A stretch of DNA of 64,000 nt from Escherichia phage vB_EcoM_HZ_ZJUN4: sequence record PP216085. One strand, written 5' to 3'. Each line of letters opens with the position of its first letter. Position 1 is the stretch's first letter. The notes beneath the pieces were generated by a model. That model made no database searches and was not told the origin of the DNA. It saw nothing but the letters and a program-made list of their open reading frames with translations. Both the position numbers and the translations under genes were made by a program. This document shows positions 5,147 to 53,380 of the stretch, in pieces.

Positions 5147-5364
5147 ATATGAACGAAGCTCTTATTAACGATTTGCGTCTTGCCGGATATGAAGTAAATA
5201 CAAACGGCATTGGTTTAACTCAAATTGAAGGAAATGGATTCATCCTTGAGTATGAATTTAGCCAATGGTGGTTATACGCTAATTACGGCGAATTGATTGA
5301 ATACGTTGACCAGTTTGATTCACTAGATGCAGCTCTCGAAGCGGCTAAGTTGATGAATGTATGA
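5143..5364 (+). CDS. hypothetical protein
   Basis: 73-aa ORF, ATGA overlap with upstream gene. Confidence 0.45.
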   Translation: MNMNEALINDLRLAGYEVNTNGIGLTQIEGNGFILEYEFSQWWLYANYGELIEYVDQFDSLDAALEAAKLMNV

Positions 5365-6959: not shown

Positions 6960-7152
6960 AAGATGAACACCCAGACTTCTGAAATAGATTATAACAAAAT
7001 TCGTTCCTCTAAAGTAGAAATGATGAGACGCTTTAAAGAGGCTCATGATAAAGCTAAAGCAGAAGGAACTATAACATATAAACGCATAAAATTTAGAAGC
7101 TCTAATGAGCCTCTGTATGGTGTATTATGTGGATAGGAGCTTCGGCTCCTAT

Positions 7153-7178
7153 ATTGCTTTATAAATTTTTGGTAAAAT
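7153..7178 (+). promoter_or_regulatory. candidate MotA-dependent middle promoter (TTGCTTTA box, -10 TAAAAT 12 nt downstream)
   Basis: MotA-box-like sequence with correct spacing upstream of a-gt. Confidence 0.35.
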
Positions 7179-7202
7179 AAACCAAAACAATGAGGATATT
7201 AA

Positions 7203-8405
7203 ATGAAAGTATGTATTTTTATGGCTCGAGGTCTTGAAGGTTGCGGTGTAACTAAATTTTCTCTTGAGCAGCGTGATTGGTTTATTAAAAATGGTCATGA
7301 AGTAACTTTGGTTTATGCTAAAGATAAATCATTTACTCGTAATTGCGCGCATGATTATAAATCATTTTCAATTCCGGTTTTATTGGCAAAAGAATACGAT
7401 AAAACACTTAAGTTGGTAAATGATTGTGATATTCTAATTATCAATTCAGTTCCTGCTACTTCAGTTGAAGAAGACACGATTAATAACTATAAAAAAATTA
7501 TTGATAACATTAAACCTTCGGTTCGTGTTGTAGTTTATCAGCATGACCATTCTTCTCTTTCTTTACGCCGAAATTTGGGATTAGAAGAAACTGTTCGTCG
7601 AGCTGATGTTATTTTTAGCCATTCTGATAATGGCGATTTTAATAAAGTTTTAATGAAAGAATGGTATCCAGAAACTGTTTCACTGTTTGATGATATTGAA
7701 GAAGCACCGACTGTATATAACTTTCAGCCTCCTATGGATATTGCGAAGGTTCGATCAACTTACTGGAAAGATGTTTCTGAAATTAACATGAATATCAACC
7801 GTTGGATTGGTCGTACTACTACATGGAAAGGCTTTTATCAGATGTTTGATTTTCACGAAAAACATCTTAAACCTGCAGGACTAAGTACTATTATGGAAGG
7901 TCTGGAACGTTCTCCAGCGTTCATTCCTATTAAAGAAAAAGGAATTCCATACGAGTATTATCGTCTTCATCAAGTAGACCAAATTAAAATTGCTCCTAAT
8001 TTGCCAACGCAAATTCTCGACCGTTATGTAAATAGCGAAATGCTTGAACGTATGAGTAAATCCGGATTTGGTTATCAGCTGAGTAAATTAGATAAAAAAT
8101 ATCTACAACGTTCTTTAGAATACACTCATCTCGAGCTTGGTGCATGCGGAACAATTCCAGTATTTTGGAAATCTACTGGTGAAAATTTAAAATTCCGTGT
8201 TGATAATACTCCGTTAATTTCTCATGATAGCGGTATCGTTTGGTTTGATGAAAATGACATGAAATCAACATTTGAGCGTATTAAAGAACTGTCATCTGAC
8301 CGAGCTCTTTATGACCGTGAACGTGAAAAAGCTTATGAATTTTTGTATCAGCATCAAGATTCAAGCTTCTGCTTTAAAGAGCAGTTTGACATTATTACAA
8401 AATAA
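7203..8405 (+). CDS. a-gt: DNA alpha-glucosyltransferase
   Basis: 400-aa ORF MKVCIFMARGLEGCGVTKF... recognised as T4 alpha-gt; position upstream of 47. Confidence 0.88.
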   Translation: MKVCIFMARGLEGCGVTKFSLEQRDWFIKNGHEVTLVYAKDKSFTRNCAHDYKSFSIPVLLAKEYDKTLKLVNDCDILIINSVPATSVEEDTINNYKKIIDNIKPSVRVVVYQHDHSSLSLRRNLGLEETVRRADVIFSHSDNGDFNKVLMKEWYPETVSLFDDIEEAPTVYNFQPPMDIAKVRSTYWKDVSEINMNINRWIGRTTTWKGFYQMFDFHEKHLKPAGLSTIMEGLERSPAFIPIKEKGIPYEYYRLHQVDQIKIAPNLPTQILDRYVNSEMLERMSKSGFGYQLSKLDKKYLQRSLEYTHLELGACGTIPVFWKSTGENLKFRVDNTPLISHDSGIVWFDENDMKSTFERIKELSSDRALYDREREKAYEFLYQHQDSSFCFKEQFDIITK

Positions 8406-8420
8406 AGGGCTTCGGCCCTT
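8405..8420 (+). terminator. hairpin aagggcttcggccctt
   Basis: GC stem with UUCG loop directly after a-gt stop. Confidence 0.55.
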
Positions 8421-8446
8421 TAGCTTTATACGGAGTTTGATATAAT
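8421..8446 (+). promoter_or_regulatory. candidate middle promoter (tAGCTTTA box 8421-8428, TATAAT 8441-8446)
   Basis: Same hairpin-box-TATAAT architecture recurs at 39301-39341. Confidence 0.4.
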
Positions 8447-8585
8447 GATATTTCTTGGATATGTGATACTTTTTCTTGCATTTTATCTATTTGCTAGAGC
8501 ATGTTGGATTGGGTTCTTTAGCACTCCAGATGGATTTATTTCAATAATTTTATTTTGCATTTCAATGACGGTTCTTGATATATGA
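8445..8585 (+). CDS. hypothetical small hydrophobic protein (46 aa)
   Basis: GGAG SD before ATG; stop overlaps gene 47 start; not in ORF track. Confidence 0.3.
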   Translation: MIFLGYVILFLAFYLFARACWIGFFSTPDGFISIILFCISMTVLDI

Positions 8586-9601
8586 AAATTTTAAATTTAG
8601 GTGATTGGCATTTAGGCGTTAAAGCTGATGATGAGTGGATTCAATCAATCCAGTTGGATGGAATTAAGCAAGCGATAGAATATTCTAAGAAAAACGGAAT
8701 TACTACATGGATTCAATACGGCGATATTTTTGATGTGCGAAAAGCAATCACACATAAAACTATGGAGTTCGCCCGTGAAATAGTTCAAATGCTTGATGAT
8801 GCTGGTATTACCCTGCATACTGTTGTAGGAAACCATGATATGCACTTTAAAAATACTTTAACTCCAAATGCTTCTACTGAGCTTTTGGCTAAATATCCTA
8901 ATGTTAAAGTATATGATAAGCCTACTACAGTAGATTTTGACGGATGTTTGATTGATTTAATTCCTTGGATGTGTGAAGAAAATACCGGTGAAATTCTTGA
9001 ACACATCAAAACTTCATCTGCTTCTTTTTGTGTTGGTCACTGGGAACTGAATGGATTTTATTTTTATAAAGGAATGAAATCTCACGGTCTTGAACCTGAT
9101 TTCCTTAAGACTTATAAAGAGGTGTGGTCTGGTCACTTCCATACTATCTCTGAGGCTGCTAACGTCAAATATATTGGGACACCATGGACACTAACTGCAG
9201 GTGACGAGAATGACCCTCGCGGGTTCTGGATGTTTGATACAGAAACAGAACGAATGGAATTTATTCCAAACAACACTACCTGGCATCGTCGAATTCAATA
9301 TCCATTTAAGGGAAAAATTGACTACAAAGATTTTACAAATCTATCAGTACGTGTTATAGTAACTGAAGTAGACAAAAATCTAACGAAGTTCGAATCTGAA
9401 CTAGAAAAAGTTGTGCATTCATTACGAGTTGTGTCAAAGATTGATAACTCTGTCGAGTCAGATGATAGCGAAGAAGTTGAAGTTCAATCTCTTCAGACGT
9501 TGATGGAAGAATACATTAATGCAATTCCAGACATCACTGATTCTGATCGCGAAGCACTTATTCAATATGCAAATCAGTTATATGTAGAGGCAACACAATG
9601 A
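8582..9601 (+). CDS. 47: recombination endonuclease subunit gp47 (Mre11-like)
   Basis: 339 aa; calcineurin-like phosphoesterase motifs (GDWHLG, GNHD); T4 order 47-46. Confidence 0.9.
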   Translation: MKILNLGDWHLGVKADDEWIQSIQLDGIKQAIEYSKKNGITTWIQYGDIFDVRKAITHKTMEFAREIVQMLDDAGITLHTVVGNHDMHFKNTLTPNASTELLAKYPNVKVYDKPTTVDFDGCLIDLIPWMCEENTGEILEHIKTSSASFCVGHWELNGFYFYKGMKSHGLEPDFLKTYKEVWSGHFHTISEAANVKYIGTPWTLTAGDENDPRGFWMFDTETERMEFIPNNTTWHRRIQYPFKGKIDYKDFTNLSVRVIVTEVDKNLTKFESELEKVVHSLRVVSKIDNSVESDDSEEVEVQSLQTLMEEYINAIPDITDSDREALIQYANQLYVEATQ

Positions 9602-15060: not shown

Positions 15061-15078
15061 AAGGGGCTTCGGCCCCTT
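15061..15078 (+). terminator. hairpin aaggggcttcggcccctt
   Basis: Strong GC stem with UUCG loop after regA. Confidence 0.55.
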
Positions 15079-15136
15079 ATTTGGAGTATAATATATCAAG
15101 AGCCTAATAACTCGGGCTATAAACTAAGGAATATCT

Positions 15137-29921: not shown

Positions 29922-29930
29922 ATAATTTAA

Positions 29931-29954
29931 GGAATCCTTCGGGGTTCCTTTTTT
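29931..29954 (+). terminator. hairpin ggaatccttcggggttcc + TTTTTT
   Basis: GC stem, UUCG loop, T run after soc. Confidence 0.6.
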
Positions 29955-29961
29955 CGTTTTT

Positions 29962-29996
29962 GCAGTTTACTTTCCAAAACAAGTATGGTATAATAG
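29962..29996 (+). promoter_or_regulatory. T4-type early promoter (GTTTAC 29965-29970, TGGTATAAT -10 29989-29994)
   Basis: Near-consensus early promoter. Confidence 0.6.
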
Positions 29997-36109: not shown

Positions 36110-36785
36110 TTTTATTATAGATTTTGAAACAATGGGAAGCGGTGAAAAAGCAGCTGTTATTGATTTGGCTGTTATTGCCTTTGACCCTAATCCAGAAGTA
36201 GTTGAATCATTTGATGAATTAGTTTCACGTGGCATTAAAATCAAGTTTGATTTAAAAAGCCAAAAAGGACATCGTCTTTTTACTAAAAGCACTATCGAAT
36301 GGTGGAAAAATCAGTCTCCTGAAGCTCGAAAAAATATTGCACCATCAGATGAAGATGTAAGCACTATCGATGGTATTGTAAAATTTAATGATTACATCAA
36401 TGCGCATAACATCGATCCTTGGAAATCTCAAGGCTGGTGCCGTGGAATGTCGTTTGATTTTCCAATTTTAGTCGATCTCATTCGCGATATTCAACGTCTT
36501 AATGGCGTTTCTGAGAATGAACTTGACACATTTAAGTTAGAACCATGTAAATTCTGGAATCAGCGTGATATTCGTACAAGAATTGAAGCACTTCTGCTTG
36601 TTCGTGATATGACCACGTGTCCTCTTCCAAAGGGAACTTTAGATGGATTCGTTGCACATGATTCTATTCATGACTGTGCGAAAGACATCCTGATGATGAA
36701 GTATGCTTTGCGATATGCTATGGGTCTTGAAGATGCTCCGTCAGAAGAAGAGTGCGATCCTCTATCTCTTCCAACAAAACGATAA
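36102..36785 (+). CDS. dexA: exonuclease A (DEDDh 3'-5' exonuclease)
   Basis: 227 aa from ATG 36102; Exo I motif IIDFETMG and later H..D motif. Confidence 0.8.
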   Translation: MFDFIIDFETMGSGEKAAVIDLAVIAFDPNPEVVESFDELVSRGIKIKFDLKSQKGHRLFTKSTIEWWKNQSPEARKNIAPSDEDVSTIDGIVKFNDYINAHNIDPWKSQGWCRGMSFDFPILVDLIRDIQRLNGVSENELDTFKLEPCKFWNQRDIRTRIEALLLVRDMTTCPLPKGTLDGFVAHDSIHDCAKDILMMKYALRYAMGLEDAPSEEECDPLSLPTKR

Positions 36786-39034: not shown

Positions 39035-39299
39035 AATTATGAAATATGTTAATCGTTCTATCGCAGCATTAGTATTAGCAGTATCTTTAGTAGGATGTAC
39101 TGATGCTGATAATGCAACCAAAGTTTTGTCTTCAAGCGGTTTTACTAATATTGAAATCACTGGATATAATTGGTTCGGTTGCTCTGAAAATGATTTCCAA
39201 CACACTGGATTTCGTGCTATTGGACCTACCGGGCAGAAAGTAGAAGGAACAGTATGTTCTGGTCTATTCTTCAAGGATTCGACTATCCGTTTTAAATAA
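39027..39299 (+). CDS. predicted lipoprotein (signal peptide, LVGC lipobox)
   Basis: MKYVNRSIAALVLAVSLVGCTD... Confidence 0.5.
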   Translation: MSEIMKYVNRSIAALVLAVSLVGCTDADNATKVLSSSGFTNIEITGYNWFGCSENDFQHTGFRAIGPTGQKVEGTVCSGLFFKDSTIRFK

Positions 39300-39300
39300 A

Positions 39301-39314
39301 AGGCCTTCGGGCCT
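39301..39314 (+). terminator. hairpin aggccttcgggcct
   Basis: GC stem and UUCG loop after lipoprotein gene. Confidence 0.5.
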
Positions 39315-39315
39315 T

Positions 39316-39341
39316 TAGCTTTATGATTACCGGAGTATAAT
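39316..39341 (+). promoter_or_regulatory. candidate MotA-dependent middle promoter (tAGCTTTA 39316-39323, TATAAT 39336-39341, 12-nt spacing)
   Basis: Same module as 8421-8446. Confidence 0.45.
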
Positions 39342-39368
39342 ATTCCCGAAACCAAACGAGGATAAGTG

Positions 39369-40919
39369 ATGATTAAGAATGAAATTAAAATTCTAAGCGA
39401 TATTGAACATATCAAAAAGCGTAGCGGCATGTATATTGGCTCTTCTGCTAATGAAATGCATGAGCGCTTTCTGTTTGGTAAATGGGAAAGTGTTCAGTAT
39501 GTACCTGGTCTTGTTAAGCTTATTGATGAAATTATCGATAACTCAGTAGATGAAGGTATTCGTACTAAGTTTAAATTCGCAAATAAAATTAATGTTACTA
39601 TTAAAAACAATCAAGTAACAGTTGAAGATAACGGTCGTGGTATTCCACAAGCGATGGTTAAAACACCTACCGGTGAAGAAATTCCTGGTCCTGTTGCTGC
39701 ATGGACTATTCCAAAAGCAGGCGGTAACTTTGGTGATGATAAAGAACGCGTCACTGGCGGTATGAACGGTGTTGGTTCTAGTTTAACTAACATTTTTTCT
39801 GTGATGTTTGTCGGTGAAACTGGCGACGGTCAAAATAATATTGTAGTTCGTTGTTCAAATGGCATGGAAAATAAATCATGGGAAACTATTCCTGGAAAAT
39901 GGAAAGGAACTCGCGTTACTTTCATTCCTGATTTTATGTCATTTGAAACTAATGAGCTATCTCAAGTTTATCTTGACATTACACTAGATCGTCTCCAGAC
40001 ACTTGCAGTAGTTTATCCTGATATTCAATTTACCTTTAATGGTAAAAAGGTTCAGGGTAATTTTAAGAAATATGCACGCCAATATGATGAACACGCTATC
40101 GTTCAAGAACAAGAAAATTGTTCTATTGCGGTTGGTCGTTCACCCGATGGTTTTCGTCAATTAACATACGTCAATAACATTCATACTAAGAATGGTGGCC
40201 ATCACATTGACTGCGTTATGGATGATATTTGTGAAGACCTTATTCCACAAATCAAACGTAAGTTCAAAATTGACGTAACTAAAGCACGTGTTAAAGAATG
40301 TTTGACTATCGTTATGTTTGTTCGTGATATGAAAAACATGCGATTTGATTCTCAAACTAAAGAGCGTCTGACTTCTCCATTTGGTGAAATCCGTAGTCAT
40401 ATTCAGCTTGATGCTAAAAAGATTTCACGTGCTATTTTGAATAATGAAGCAATTTTAATGCCAATCATTGAAGCTGCCTTGGCTCGTAAATTGGCGGCAG
40501 AAAAAGCAGCAGAAACTAAAGCAGCTAAAAAGGCTTCTAAAGCTAAGGTTCATAAACATATTAAAGCGAATCTTTGCGGTAAAGATGCTGATACTACTCT
40601 TTTCTTGACTGAGGGTGATTCTGCTATCGGATATCTTATTGATGTTCGTGATAAAGAACTTCATGGTGGTTATCCATTGCGTGGTAAAGTTCTTAACAGT
40701 TGGGGTATGTCATATGCTGATATGCTTAAAAATAAAGAACTGTTTGATATTTGCGCAATCACTGGATTAGTTCTTGGTGAAAAGGCGTTTGAAGAAAAAG
40801 AAGATGGCGAGTGGTTTACTTTCGAACTAAATGGCGATACAATTATCGTAAATGAAAATGATGAAGTACAGATTAATGGTAAATGGATAACAGTAGGTGA
40901 ATTACGAAAAAATCTATAA
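39369..40919 (+). CDS. 39: DNA topoisomerase II large subunit gp39 (GyrB-like ATPase), N-terminal part of split gene
   Basis: 516 aa from ATG 39369; GHKL ATPase motifs (NSVDEG, GRGIP, GGMNGVGSS). Confidence 0.9.
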   Translation: MIKNEIKILSDIEHIKKRSGMYIGSSANEMHERFLFGKWESVQYVPGLVKLIDEIIDNSVDEGIRTKFKFANKINVTIKNNQVTVEDNGRGIPQAMVKTPTGEEIPGPVAAWTIPKAGGNFGDDKERVTGGMNGVGSSLTNIFSVMFVGETGDGQNNIVVRCSNGMENKSWETIPGKWKGTRVTFIPDFMSFETNELSQVYLDITLDRLQTLAVVYPDIQFTFNGKKVQGNFKKYARQYDEHAIVQEQENCSIAVGRSPDGFRQLTYVNNIHTKNGGHHIDCVMDDICEDLIPQIKRKFKIDVTKARVKECLTIVMFVRDMKNMRFDSQTKERLTSPFGEIRSHIQLDAKKISRAILNNEAILMPIIEAALARKLAAEKAAETKAAKKASKAKVHKHIKANLCGKDADTTLFLTEGDSAIGYLIDVRDKELHGGYPLRGKVLNSWGMSYADMLKNKELFDICAITGLVLGEKAFEEKEDGEWFTFELNGDTIIVNENDEVQINGKWITVGELRKNL

Positions 40920-41715
40920 TGACTTAATAGTGCGGGGTAAAACCCGCGTTTCTAAATTTAAGGGTGAAATTCATCATATCCTTCCAAGATCAATGGGAGG
41001 TTCTGATGATAAAGAAAATTTGGTGAAACTGACTTTTCGTGAACATTTTTTAGCACATTTTCTACTATATAAAATTCATCGTAATCGTGAAATGGCATAT
41101 GCGATGAATAGAATGTTAAACACTGAAAAATATTTACGTTCTAGTAAATTATATGAAATTACTAGAATTTACCATCAAAGAGCAGTATCTGAATGGTCAA
41201 AAAACTTTATGAAAGATAAAGTTTTAATGAGAAGTATTAAATCGGGTAAATGCGCCTTATTAATTAAAGGATCATTTAACCCAAAGGAATGGTGCGGTGT
41301 TAATAAAGGTGTTAAGCTTCCTGGAATTAAAGGCATGACATGCTTTAAAAATGAAAAAGGCGAAGTTTTTCGTCTTCATGTTAATGATCCACGCATTAAA
41401 GCTGAAAAATTAGTTGGTATTGGAAATACTGTTGCTGCTACTGCAAAAGCAGCTGAACTTGAAAAAGCGAAACCATGGTATAATAAATCAGCGACAAATC
41501 CAGAGGCTGTAAAATTAATACCAAATTTATATGAATGGTACGTCACGAAATATGACCCCGATCATTATAAACGAACGGGAGTTGCTAAATGGAAATCAGT
41601 TAATAATATAACTGTGAATTCAAAATTATTCGGCCGAGCATTTAATGAATTTAAACGCGGTTGGATTCCTGATGAAAAGTTCTATGAGGTGTATAATGAA
41701 ATTTGTAAAAATTGA
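40897..41715 (+). CDS. mobA: HNH homing endonuclease (MobA-like) between genes 39 and 60
   Basis: 272 aa; EIHHILPRSMGGSDDKENLVKLTFREHFLAHF HNH core; overlaps 39 end and 60 start. Confidence 0.7.
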   Translation: MNYEKIYNDLIVRGKTRVSKFKGEIHHILPRSMGGSDDKENLVKLTFREHFLAHFLLYKIHRNREMAYAMNRMLNTEKYLRSSKLYEITRIYHQRAVSEWSKNFMKDKVLMRSIKSGKCALLIKGSFNPKEWCGVNKGVKLPGIKGMTCFKNEKGEVFRLHVNDPRIKAEKLVGIGNTVAATAKAAELEKAKPWYNKSATNPEAVKLIPNLYEWYVTKYDPDHYKRTGVAKWKSVNNITVNSKLFGRAFNEFKRGWIPDEKFYEVYNEICKN

Positions 41716-41833
41716 TTCTTCTAGCGTTGATATGAAAAAATATAAATTGCAGAACAATGTTCGTCGTTCTATTAAATCCTCTTCAATGAACTATGCGAAT
41801 GTCGCTATTATGACAGACGCAGATCACGATGGA
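41696..41833 (+). CDS. 60: topoisomerase II subunit gp60, codons 1-46 (pre-bypass)
   Basis: MKFVKIDSSSVDMKKYKLQNNVRRSIKSSSMNYANVAIMTDADHDG ends at take-off GGA followed by TAG. Confidence 0.9.
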
Positions 41834-41883
41834 TAGCCTTCGGGCTATCTATAGAAATACCTCATAATTAAGAGATTATTGGA
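41834..41883 (+). promoter_or_regulatory. 60: gene 60 translational bypass coding gap (50 nt): UAG stop plus take-off stem-loop tagccttcgggctatct, ending at landing GGA 41881-41883
   Basis: Sequence GAT GGA TAG CCTTCGGGCTATCTATAGAAATACCTCATAATTAAGAGATTATT GGA TTA GGT matches the T4 gene 60 hop element as I recall it. Confidence 0.9.
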
Positions 41884-50652: not shown

Positions 50653-51288
50653 ATGTCTAAAGTAACTTACATCATCAAAGCTTCTAACGATGTTCTGAAT
50701 GAAAAAACTGCTGCGATTTTAATTACCATTGCTAAGAAAGATTTCATTACAGCTGCAGAAGTTCGTGAGGTGCATCTAGATTTAGGTAACGCAGTAGTTA
50801 ATAGTAATATTGGGGTATTGATTAAAAAAGGCCTGGTGGAGAAATCTGGTGATGGATTAATCATTACAGGTGAAGCTCAGGATATTATTTCAAATGCAGC
50901 AACTTTATACGCACAGGAAAATGCTCCTGAACTGTTGAAAAAACGAGCAACACGTAAAGCTCGCGAGATTACTTCCGATATGGAAGAAGATAAAGACTTC
51001 ATGTTAAAACTTTTAGATGAAAATGGATTTGTTCTTAAAAAAGTTGAAACTTATCGTAGTAACTATCTCGCTATTTTAGAAAAACGCACTCACGGAATTC
51101 GCAATTTTGAAATTAACAACAATGGAAATATGCGAATTTTTGGATACAAAATGATGGAACATCATATTCAGAAATTTACTGATATTGGAATGTCATGTAA
51201 AATCGCTAAAAACGGTAATGTGTATCTTGACATTAAACGCTCGGCAGAAAACATTGAAGCTGTAATCACCGTAGCATCTGAACTGTGA
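50653..51288 (+). CDS. motA: middle-transcription activator MotA
   Basis: 211 aa MSKVTYIIKASNDVLNEKTAAILITIAKKDF... recognised as T4 MotA. Confidence 0.9.
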   Translation: MSKVTYIIKASNDVLNEKTAAILITIAKKDFITAAEVREVHLDLGNAVVNSNIGVLIKKGLVEKSGDGLIITGEAQDIISNAATLYAQENAPELLKKRATRKAREITSDMEEDKDFMLKLLDENGFVLKKVETYRSNYLAILEKRTHGIRNFEINNNGNMRIFGYKMMEHHIQKFTDIGMSCKIAKNGNVYLDIKRSAENIEAVITVASEL

Positions 51289-53107: not shown

Positions 53108-53380
53108 ATGAATAAAAGCATTGATACAGTTCGTGAAATTATTACTGTTGCATCTATTTTGATTAAATTTTCCAGAGAAGATATTGTTGAGAATCGTGCT
53201 AATTTTATTGCATTTCTGAATGAGATTGGAGTAACGCATGAAGGTAGAAAGTTAAATCAGAATTCATTCCGTAAAATTGTTGCTGAATTAACTCAAGAAG
53301 ATAAGAAAACCCTCATCGACGAATTCAACGAGGGTTTTGAAGGTGTATATCGATATCTAGAGATGTATACAAACAAATAA
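53108..53380 (+). CDS. asiA: anti-sigma-70 factor AsiA
   Basis: 90 aa MNKSIDTVREIITVASILIKFSREDIVENRANFIAFLNEIG... recognised as AsiA. Confidence 0.9.
   Translation: MNKSIDTVREIITVASILIKFSREDIVENRANFIAFLNEIGVTHEGRKLNQNSFRKIVAELTQEDKKTLIDEFNEGFEGVYRYLEMYTNK

Follow-up and report, generated by a model that had tools for sequence, protein, structure and literature searches.

Two intergenic sites in Escherichia phage vB_EcoM_HZ_ZJUN4 (sequence record PP216085) set a C(UUCG)G hairpin, a MotA box, and a -10 element directly against one another, one between a-gt and open reading frame (ORF) 47.1/gene 47 and the other between ORF 39.1 and gene 39. Each site is very probably a tightly packed junction of two independently known phage T4 elements, an intercistronic stem-loop and a middle promoter (P47 and P39, respectively). 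The stretch analyzed, referred to here as the window, is 64,000 nucleotides long. Its genome, that of a Tequatrovirus, shares 97-99% identity with many T4-like coliphages (~98% with BF15 and KIT06), and its + strand is the counterpart of the T4 early/middle strand.

The two-site pattern is real and non-random. The 40-nt pattern GGNCTTCGGNCCTTTAGCTTTAT-N11-TATAAT has exactly two matches in the window, at 8407-8446 and 39302-39341; this number is unchanged when three mismatches are allowed, and the chance expectation is 0.00 (100 shuffles). Likewise, AGCTTTA-N12-TATAAT occurs at these two sites only when both window strands are scanned. Between AAAGG and GCTTTAT (~29 nt), only two positions distinguish the P47 copy from the P39 copy, and these are paired stem partners (G-C vs C-G). 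Both sites match their T4 counterparts at every base from the hairpin to +1.

The promoters (1988), the hairpin class (1988), and composite stem-loop/promoter cassettes (2010, 2014) are already published. What is added here is the exact anatomy of a stop codon, hairpin, MotA box, RegB/Shine-Dalgarno (SD) site, -10 element, and next start codon that overlap within 39 nt, a T-rich MotA box that may double as the hairpin tail, a gene 39 layout conserved over several genera with compensatory stem changes, and the caution that termination at the hairpins is probably leaky and not strict. These details are of use for annotating Tequatrovirus genomes and for engineering T4 intergenic regions.

Anatomy of the P47 and P39 junctions

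The features of the P47 site and of the genes that follow it are listed below; start positions are those predicted by identity with T4.

8403..8422, + strand: C(UUCG)G hairpin closing a-gt, with the 8-bp stem TAAAGGGC-TTCG-GCCCTTTA and the loop at 8411-8414
8419..8428, + strand: P47 MotA box TTTAGCTTTA, with its core AGCTTTA at 8422-8428; identical in T4 P47
8433..8436, + strand: GGAG, the SD sequence of 47.1 and a RegB site, at -20..-17 of P47, inside the 12-nt spacer
8441..8446, + strand: P47 -10 element TATAAT, 12 bp past the MotA core; identical to T4
8445..8585, + strand: ORF 47.1 (46 aa), a predicted membrane protein in T4
8453, + strand: P47 transcription start, by identity with T4 36576 (Hinton 2010 Table 1), 7 nt past TATAAT
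8582..9601, + strand: gene 47, an SbcD-like recombination nuclease subunit with a Metallophos domain, served by P47

The a-gt stop codon TAA (8403-8405) supplies the first three bases of the stem, and the 3' arm includes the first four bases of the MotA box. As RNA, the stem-loop reads TAAAGGGC-UUCG-GCCCUUUA, with a predicted free energy of -13.1 kcal/mol in context; it is identical to T4 36626-36607. At the other end of the junction, the P47 TATAAT ends in the A and T that begin the 47.1 ATG. Because the P47 start lies 8 nt inside ORF 47.1, the middle transcript cannot encode 47.1, and only an RNA started upstream can. This arrangement, with the -10 element overlapping the 47.1 start codon and the middle transcript beginning within 47.1, is common to the window phage and T4, whereas in JS98-like phages (L018/L026, 1330-1400) ORF 47.1 has its own leader and an SD sequence downstream of the -10 element. 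A Pfam search with ORF 47.1 returned no match.

The P39 site is organized in the same order.

39299..39316, + strand: C(UUCG)G hairpin closing ORF 39.1, with the 7-bp stem AAAGGCC-TTCG-GGCCTTT (as RNA, AAAGGCC-UUCG-GGCCUUU)
39314..39323, + strand: P39 MotA box TTTAGCTTTA, with its core AGCTTTA at 39317-39323; identical in T4
39336..39341, + strand: P39 -10 element TATAAT, separated from AGCTTTA by a 12-nt spacer, with GGAG at 39331-39334 just before it
39348, + strand: P39 transcription start, by identity with T4 5349 (Hinton 2010 Table 1), 7 nt past TATAAT
39369..40919, + strand: gene 39, the topoisomerase II large subunit, with the SD sequence GAGGA at 39358-39362

Here, the 39.1 stop codon TAA (39297-39299) ends at the first stem base, and the 3' arm includes the first three bases of the MotA box. 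The hairpin, identical to T4 5398-5381, has a predicted free energy of -10.7 kcal/mol in context, and the gene 39 ATG is 21 nt downstream of the P39 start.

A preliminary description of the window, made from its letters, had proposed this order of UUCG hairpin, AGCTTTA, and -10 element at 12-nt spacing. The order holds at both sites on the + strand, with the 12 nt counted from AGCTTTA; the positions first assigned to the elements are displaced by 1-2 nt at their starts, as GGGC begins at 8407 and GGCC at 39302. The units had also been placed before genes 47 and 39. For gene 39 this is accurate, while the first unit really precedes and overlaps ORF 47.1, with gene 47 beginning at 8582.

For comparison with the window, the T4 genome was assembled and the sequence 5' of each of the 58 middle starts listed in Hinton 2010 was extracted. 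Both P39 (start at 5349) and P47 (start at 36576) are among these identified promoters, with Guild et al. 1988 given as the source (Hinton 2010, Virol J 7:289, PMC2988021). The middle-promoter consensus is (a/t)(a/t)(a/t)TGCTTtA, followed after 12 +/- 1 bp by TAtaaT, with the box near -30, and MotA tolerates deviations from it (PMC2988021). At both sites, TTTAGCTTTA fits the MotA consensus at 9/10 positions, the deviation being an A for T at the first core base; AGCT cores are also found in other listed T4 middle promoters. A sigma-70 promoter scan called no -35-type promoter ending at 8446 or 39341.

MotA and AsiA, which middle promoters require, are both encoded in the window.

50653..51288, + strand: motA, the activator that reads the MotA box (Pfam MotA_activ, E 1.8e-59; MotCF, E 8.7e-67)
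53108..53380, + strand: asiA, the co-activator that remodels sigma-70 region 4 (Pfam AsiA, E 3e-42)

P47 and P39 are thus assigned as MotA/AsiA-dependent middle promoters, a property shown in T4 and carried to the window by identity. With respect to the T4 promoters of Guild et al. 1988 there is no difference in elements; the window phage is a relative, and its starts are given by identity. The proposal that middle transcription is re-initiated at these sites is borne out to this extent, since starts downstream of both elements, on which the preliminary description had made its case depend, are listed in the literature for T4 at 36576 and 5349, in each case 7 nt past TATAAT. In the RefSeq and GenBank records of T4, neither promoters nor terminators are annotated at P47 and P39, and an Rfam search of the whole window gave zero matches.

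Stem-loops, termination, and read-through

The C(UUCG)G intercistronic hairpin class was originally recognized in mRNA of T4 (Tuerk et al. 1988, summarized in Hall 2015, RNA 21:630, PMC4371310). Both window hairpins resemble this class in having a UUCG loop closed by C-G, a short GC stem extended by A-U pairs, and a position between cistrons. The 1988 hairpin work of Tuerk and colleagues was reportedly about thermodynamic stability. There are 12 C(UUCG)G hairpins on the window + strand; T4 has 20 (stems of at least 4 bp) on its early/middle strand and 3 on the other strand, and the T4 hairpins fall into a few near-identical sequence types.

Both sites have a stable GC-rich stem (7-8 bp, 4 G-C pairs, UUCG loop, -10.7 to -13.1 kcal/mol) directly past a stop codon, followed by a T-containing tail, and in these respects they are like canonical Rho-independent terminators. 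They differ in that the tail is interrupted (UUUAGCUUUAU), that its proximal U's are able to pair with the upstream A-run, and that they fall below threshold in two simple scores. The tails past the stem, GCTTTATA and AGCTTTAT, each have 4 T in 8 and contain no uninterrupted U-tract, and a consensus terminator scan of the + strand leaves both hairpins uncalled because of this T-tail. A d-score of the d'Aubenton-Carafa 1990 type is about -13 for both sites, compared with +3 to +21 for window hairpins with real T-runs; these values are approximate, being computed with an approximate form of the formula and modern energy parameters.

Evidence for RNA that crosses the hairpin comes from RegB. All intergenic GGAGs of T4 have been tested, and the 47.1 GGAG is "moderately cleaved" by RegB in vivo (Durand et al. 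2006, PMC1702504). Because this GGAG lies at -20..-17 of P47, upstream of the start, it is present on read-through RNA only, so the 47.1 RNA cleaved by RegB must have begun upstream and crossed the hairpin. According to T4 reviews, middle genes are transcribed from their middle promoters and also when early transcripts are extended (PMC2988021). A GGAG, the RegB core, also occurs between the hairpin and the -10 element at P39 and at P43, a variant site described below (8433-8436 at P47, 39331-39334 at P39, 15083-15086 at P43). At all three it would be carried on read-through RNA only, because the middle start lies downstream of it in every case. Of the 58 T4 middle promoters in the list, only one other (PmobD) has GGAG in this interval. 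Published RegB cleavage data cover the 47.1 site only among the GGAGs of P47, P39, and P43 (PMC1702504).

These hairpins are most likely leaky terminators and/or barriers to 3' exonucleases that would close the upstream cistron. The preliminary description had them end upstream transcripts. The stable stem agrees with this, while the weak U-tail, the silent scan, and the RegB evidence for read-through do not, and any termination is probably only partial.

We propose the following model for the two sites. On the DNA, AsiA would remodel sigma-70 region 4, MotA would bind the box near -30, and region 2 would bind TATAAT, giving starts at 8453 and 39348. On RNA arriving from upstream promoters, the C(UUCG)G stem-loop would fold at the end of a-gt or 39.1, with the stop codon in or at its 5' arm, and could serve as a leaky intrinsic terminator as well as a 3' exonuclease barrier. 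The A/T-rich 5' part of the MotA box would then provide the hairpin's 3' arm and U-tail, and it is because of this sharing that a stop codon, hairpin, activator site, and -10 element can be accommodated within 39-69 nt. Read-through RNA would carry 47.1 and 47, with the SD sequence GGAG exposed to RegB, and the middle transcript would carry gene 47 alone.

On the - strand, the site-1 hairpin (8422-8403) is followed by TTTTGTAATA, and the scan calls it terminator-like; it could therefore be a stop for antisense transcription too.

Further copies and relatives of the unit

The preliminary description regarded the element as a reusable intergenic unit with possible further copies. This view is fair, as a third copy and a variant were found in the window, together with an early-promoter version.

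7133..7184, + strand: third copy, with the hairpin ATAGGAGC-TTCG-GCTCCTAT at 7133-7152 and the same layout as the unit at 8403
15061..15097, + strand: P43 variant, with a CUUCGG hairpin (15061-15078) in the MotA-box position (GGGGCTTCGG)
29929..29995: early-promoter version, with the hairpin AAGGAATCC-UUCG-GGGUUCCUU, a T-run, and TTTACT-N17-TATAAT

The stem-loop of the third copy reads ATAGGAGC-UUCG-GCUCCUAU as RNA and is called terminator-like by the + strand scan. It is followed by TGCTTTA (7155-7161), an N11 spacer, TAAAAT (7173-7178), and a predicted start near 7184. This copy corresponds to T4 PmobB (start 38682). T4 has the HNH homing-endonuclease gene mobB next, whereas mobB is missing in the window phage, and the third copy would thus drive a-gt (7203-8405) directly. 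In the P43 variant, GGAG (15083-15086) and TATAAT (15087-15092) follow, the latter 8 nt past the stem, and the start is placed at 15097 by homology with T4 29933. The element at 29929-29995 fits the PeSL (stem-loop/promoter) consensus published for the PST/T4 pair.

Measured in T4, mapped middle starts lie +30, +31, and +32 nt past three UUCG hairpins and +18 nt past a fourth, and the remaining hairpins are at least 56 nt off. The random expectation is ~0.08 coincidences in a 12-nt window, a figure that ignores the common preference of both elements for intergenic positions. In a pattern search of viral contigs, the only matches were the P47 and P39 sites of Tequatrovirus contigs and an a-gt-like promoter in another genus, with no additional copies.

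Loci encoding gp47 and gp39 homologues were fetched from viral contigs for comparison of their upstream regions. Upstream of gene 39, ~22/31 loci (counted by eye) contain a hairpin, a T-run, TGCTTT(A/T), N12, and a -10 element; carriers include JS98, Edwardsiella phage PEi20, Pectobacterium phage PM2, and Erwinia phage Cronus. The genes that precede this unit vary between relatives and genera. MAFFT alignment of the gene 39 upstream regions lost the stem register, so pairing was tabulated directly. In a set of 15 distinct hairpins every stem position is paired (114/114), with C-G, G-C, and A-U replacing one another at positions 2-6; the loop sequences, UNCG and GNRA types among them, are UUCG, UACG, GCAA, UUAG, UAAC, or CUAGU. 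Because the stems vary and yet always pair, selection acts on the RNA stem-loop rather than on the sequence. In relatives with a consensus box, the tail reads UUUUGCUUU, so the T-rich MotA box may be able to double as a terminator tail.

The a-gt region differs between relatives. JS98-like phages carry just one unit here, between a-gt.2 and 47.1, whereas in the window phage and T4 a-gt is situated between two units. The unit at 7133 is homologous to the JS98 unit over its full length, including leader and SD sequence, while the unit at 8403 aligns at functional motifs only. In another genus, an a-gt homologue (67.6% identity) has the unit upstream and no hairpin downstream. One further contig, L081 (IMGVR_UViG_2706795394_000001), has a hairpin-TGCTTTA-N12-TATAAT unit that precedes a different ORF (ATGAACTTAAAACAA...) instead of gene 39, which suggests an insertion directly past the promoter, as for mobB in T4.

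Known cassettes and alternative explanations

Stem-loops positioned immediately upstream of promoters in T4-like phages are known as PeSLs, and their Mot-box version as PmSLs (Arbiol et al. 2010, GBE 2:140; Comeau, Arbiol & Krisch 2014, GBE 6:1611). A PmSL with a TGCTT Mot box plus a -10 element is reported for Vibrio phage nt-1, while for the PST/T4 pair the text consulted describes early-promoter PeSLs only (GBE 2:140; GBE 6:1611). Selected RB49 PeSLs have promoter and terminator activity in lacZ/reporter fusions, and PeSL recombination with mini-circle formation is recorded for RB49 and phi1 (Arbiol et al. 2010, GBE 2:140). Such cassettes often adjoin differences in gene content between related phages (GBE 2:140; GBE 6:1611).

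Judged by layout, the P47 and P39 sites fit the PmSL anatomy. At both, the 3' arm of the hairpin overlaps the MotA box within one intergenic region, and a Mot box is combined with a -10 element, the core being AGCTT at P47 and P39 and TGCTT in the third copy and in relatives. As for the SD sequence and start codon of a PmSL, P39 has GAGGA (39358-39362) and ATG (39369), whereas P47 has no leader or SD sequence past the -10 element, its SD sequence being in the spacer, upstream of the start. The window units also differ from PmSLs in that they flank core genes (47, 39, 43) besides variable ones. The units are bordered by three differences, in the presence of mobB, in the presence of a-gt, and in the genes that precede gene 39, but the breakpoints are not placed within the units as expected from a crossover.

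Several observations weigh against reading each site as a functional junction of stem-loop and middle promoter. The start sites are those of T4 itself. Of the 58 T4 middle promoters mapped, only 3-4 are abutted by a strong hairpin; when hairpins are defined loosely, 3 are observed upstream of the 58 compared with 1.3 expected, which is no enrichment. Enterobacter-type phages (L047-L050) have the gene 39 MotA promoter directly past the stop codon, without a hairpin. We found no T4 3'-end maps in the literature and no mapped 3' end at either hairpin, for which reason we infer termination, and a time-resolved T4 omics paper contains no terminator data. Moreover, ARNold predicts a terminator at the site-1 hairpin in the record of phage GiZh, in opposition to the scan and the d-score. 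Given the lack of enrichment among the 58, we rejected the view that middle promoters generally include a hairpin.

It is rather unlikely that the adjacency is functionless and that short intergenic spacers simply force hairpin and promoter together, as might be supposed from spacers of only 39 and 69 nt, from the small number of promoters concerned, from the unenriched weak hairpins, and from the relatives that have no hairpin. The near-fixed spacing, with starts +30 to +32 nt past the hairpin at three T4 sites, argues against this reading, as does the retention of the hairpin-TGCTTT junction in at least five genera despite turnover of stems and upstream genes. In a strict form of the model in the preliminary description, the hairpin would work as a Rho-independent terminator with high efficiency and let essentially no upstream transcript pass, so that 47 and 39 would be insulated and served by middle promoters only. 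Stable GC-cored tetraloop hairpins directly past stop codons, the ARNold call in phage GiZh, and the RB49 PeSL stem-loops, which terminate efficiently in reporter assays (Arbiol et al. 2010), are in line with this, and an upstream terminator might shield the promoter from occlusion by incoming polymerases. We nevertheless consider it quite improbable, as the tail UUUAGCUUUAU has 4 T in 8 and a d-score of about -13, RegB cleavage at the 47.1 GGAG needs an RNA that crosses the hairpin, and ORF 47.1 would be inexpressible without read-through.

Another possibility is that the sites are boundaries of recombination cassettes, that is, true PmSLs, whose near-identical copies would have arisen by copy-and-paste or gene conversion, with a-gt inserted by recombination between such units or by integration of a mini-circle. 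This would account for a-gt between two units (7133-7184 and 8403-8453) in the window phage and T4 compared with the single JS98-like unit, for the addition of mobB in T4, for the different genes upstream of the gene 39 unit between genera, and for copies at P47 and P39 that differ by one compensatory pair over ~29 nt; exchange mediated by PeSLs is on record for RB49 and phi1, as are mini-circles. However, the homology of the 7133 unit to JS98 throughout and of the 8403 unit at motifs only is not the pattern of a hybrid crossover, the a-gt homologue of another genus has a unit upstream only, and, with few T4 hairpin types and AGCTT cores elsewhere, similarity can arise by convergence under tight constraints. 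We therefore judge cassette exchange to be unlikely; a-gt as a cassette flanked by two units, in particular, is supported neither by the breakpoints nor by the other genus. Least probable is an inverted repeat that acts on the DNA as part of the promoter, for instance by forming a cruciform or by standing in for an UP element as a GC block. The repeat spans roughly -50 to -31, the region of upstream promoter contacts, and the P43 hairpin covers the MotA-box position, but the loops are stable tetraloops specific to RNA (UUCG, UACG, GCAA), pairing rather than sequence is conserved, footprints after alpha ADP-ribosylation show no contact upstream of the MotA box (PMC2988021), and most middle promoters have no such repeat.

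Beyond a packed junction of two known elements, these sites might also represent a dual-coded signal, in which the MotA box doubles as the U-tail and the composite is selected across Tevenvirinae both as a recombinogenic boundary (a PmSL in T4 proper) and as an mRNA-isoform switch. This is a speculative extension that we think has little chance of being correct. If it is, a-gt or homing endonucleases could slot in with neighbouring expression undisturbed, and infected cells would switch between an early read-through RNA, with 47.1 and its RegB site, and a middle RNA with 47 only.

Two minor observations concern the region past gene 39. One continuous 272-aa ORF (40897-41715), whose HNH match is weak and below threshold, occupies the interval from gene 39 to gene 60; at this position the T4 record has a short "defective" mobA plus 60.1. 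Further downstream, the hairpin ATGGATAGCCTTCGGGCTATCTAT (41829-41852) is identical to the translational-bypass stem-loop of T4 gene 60.

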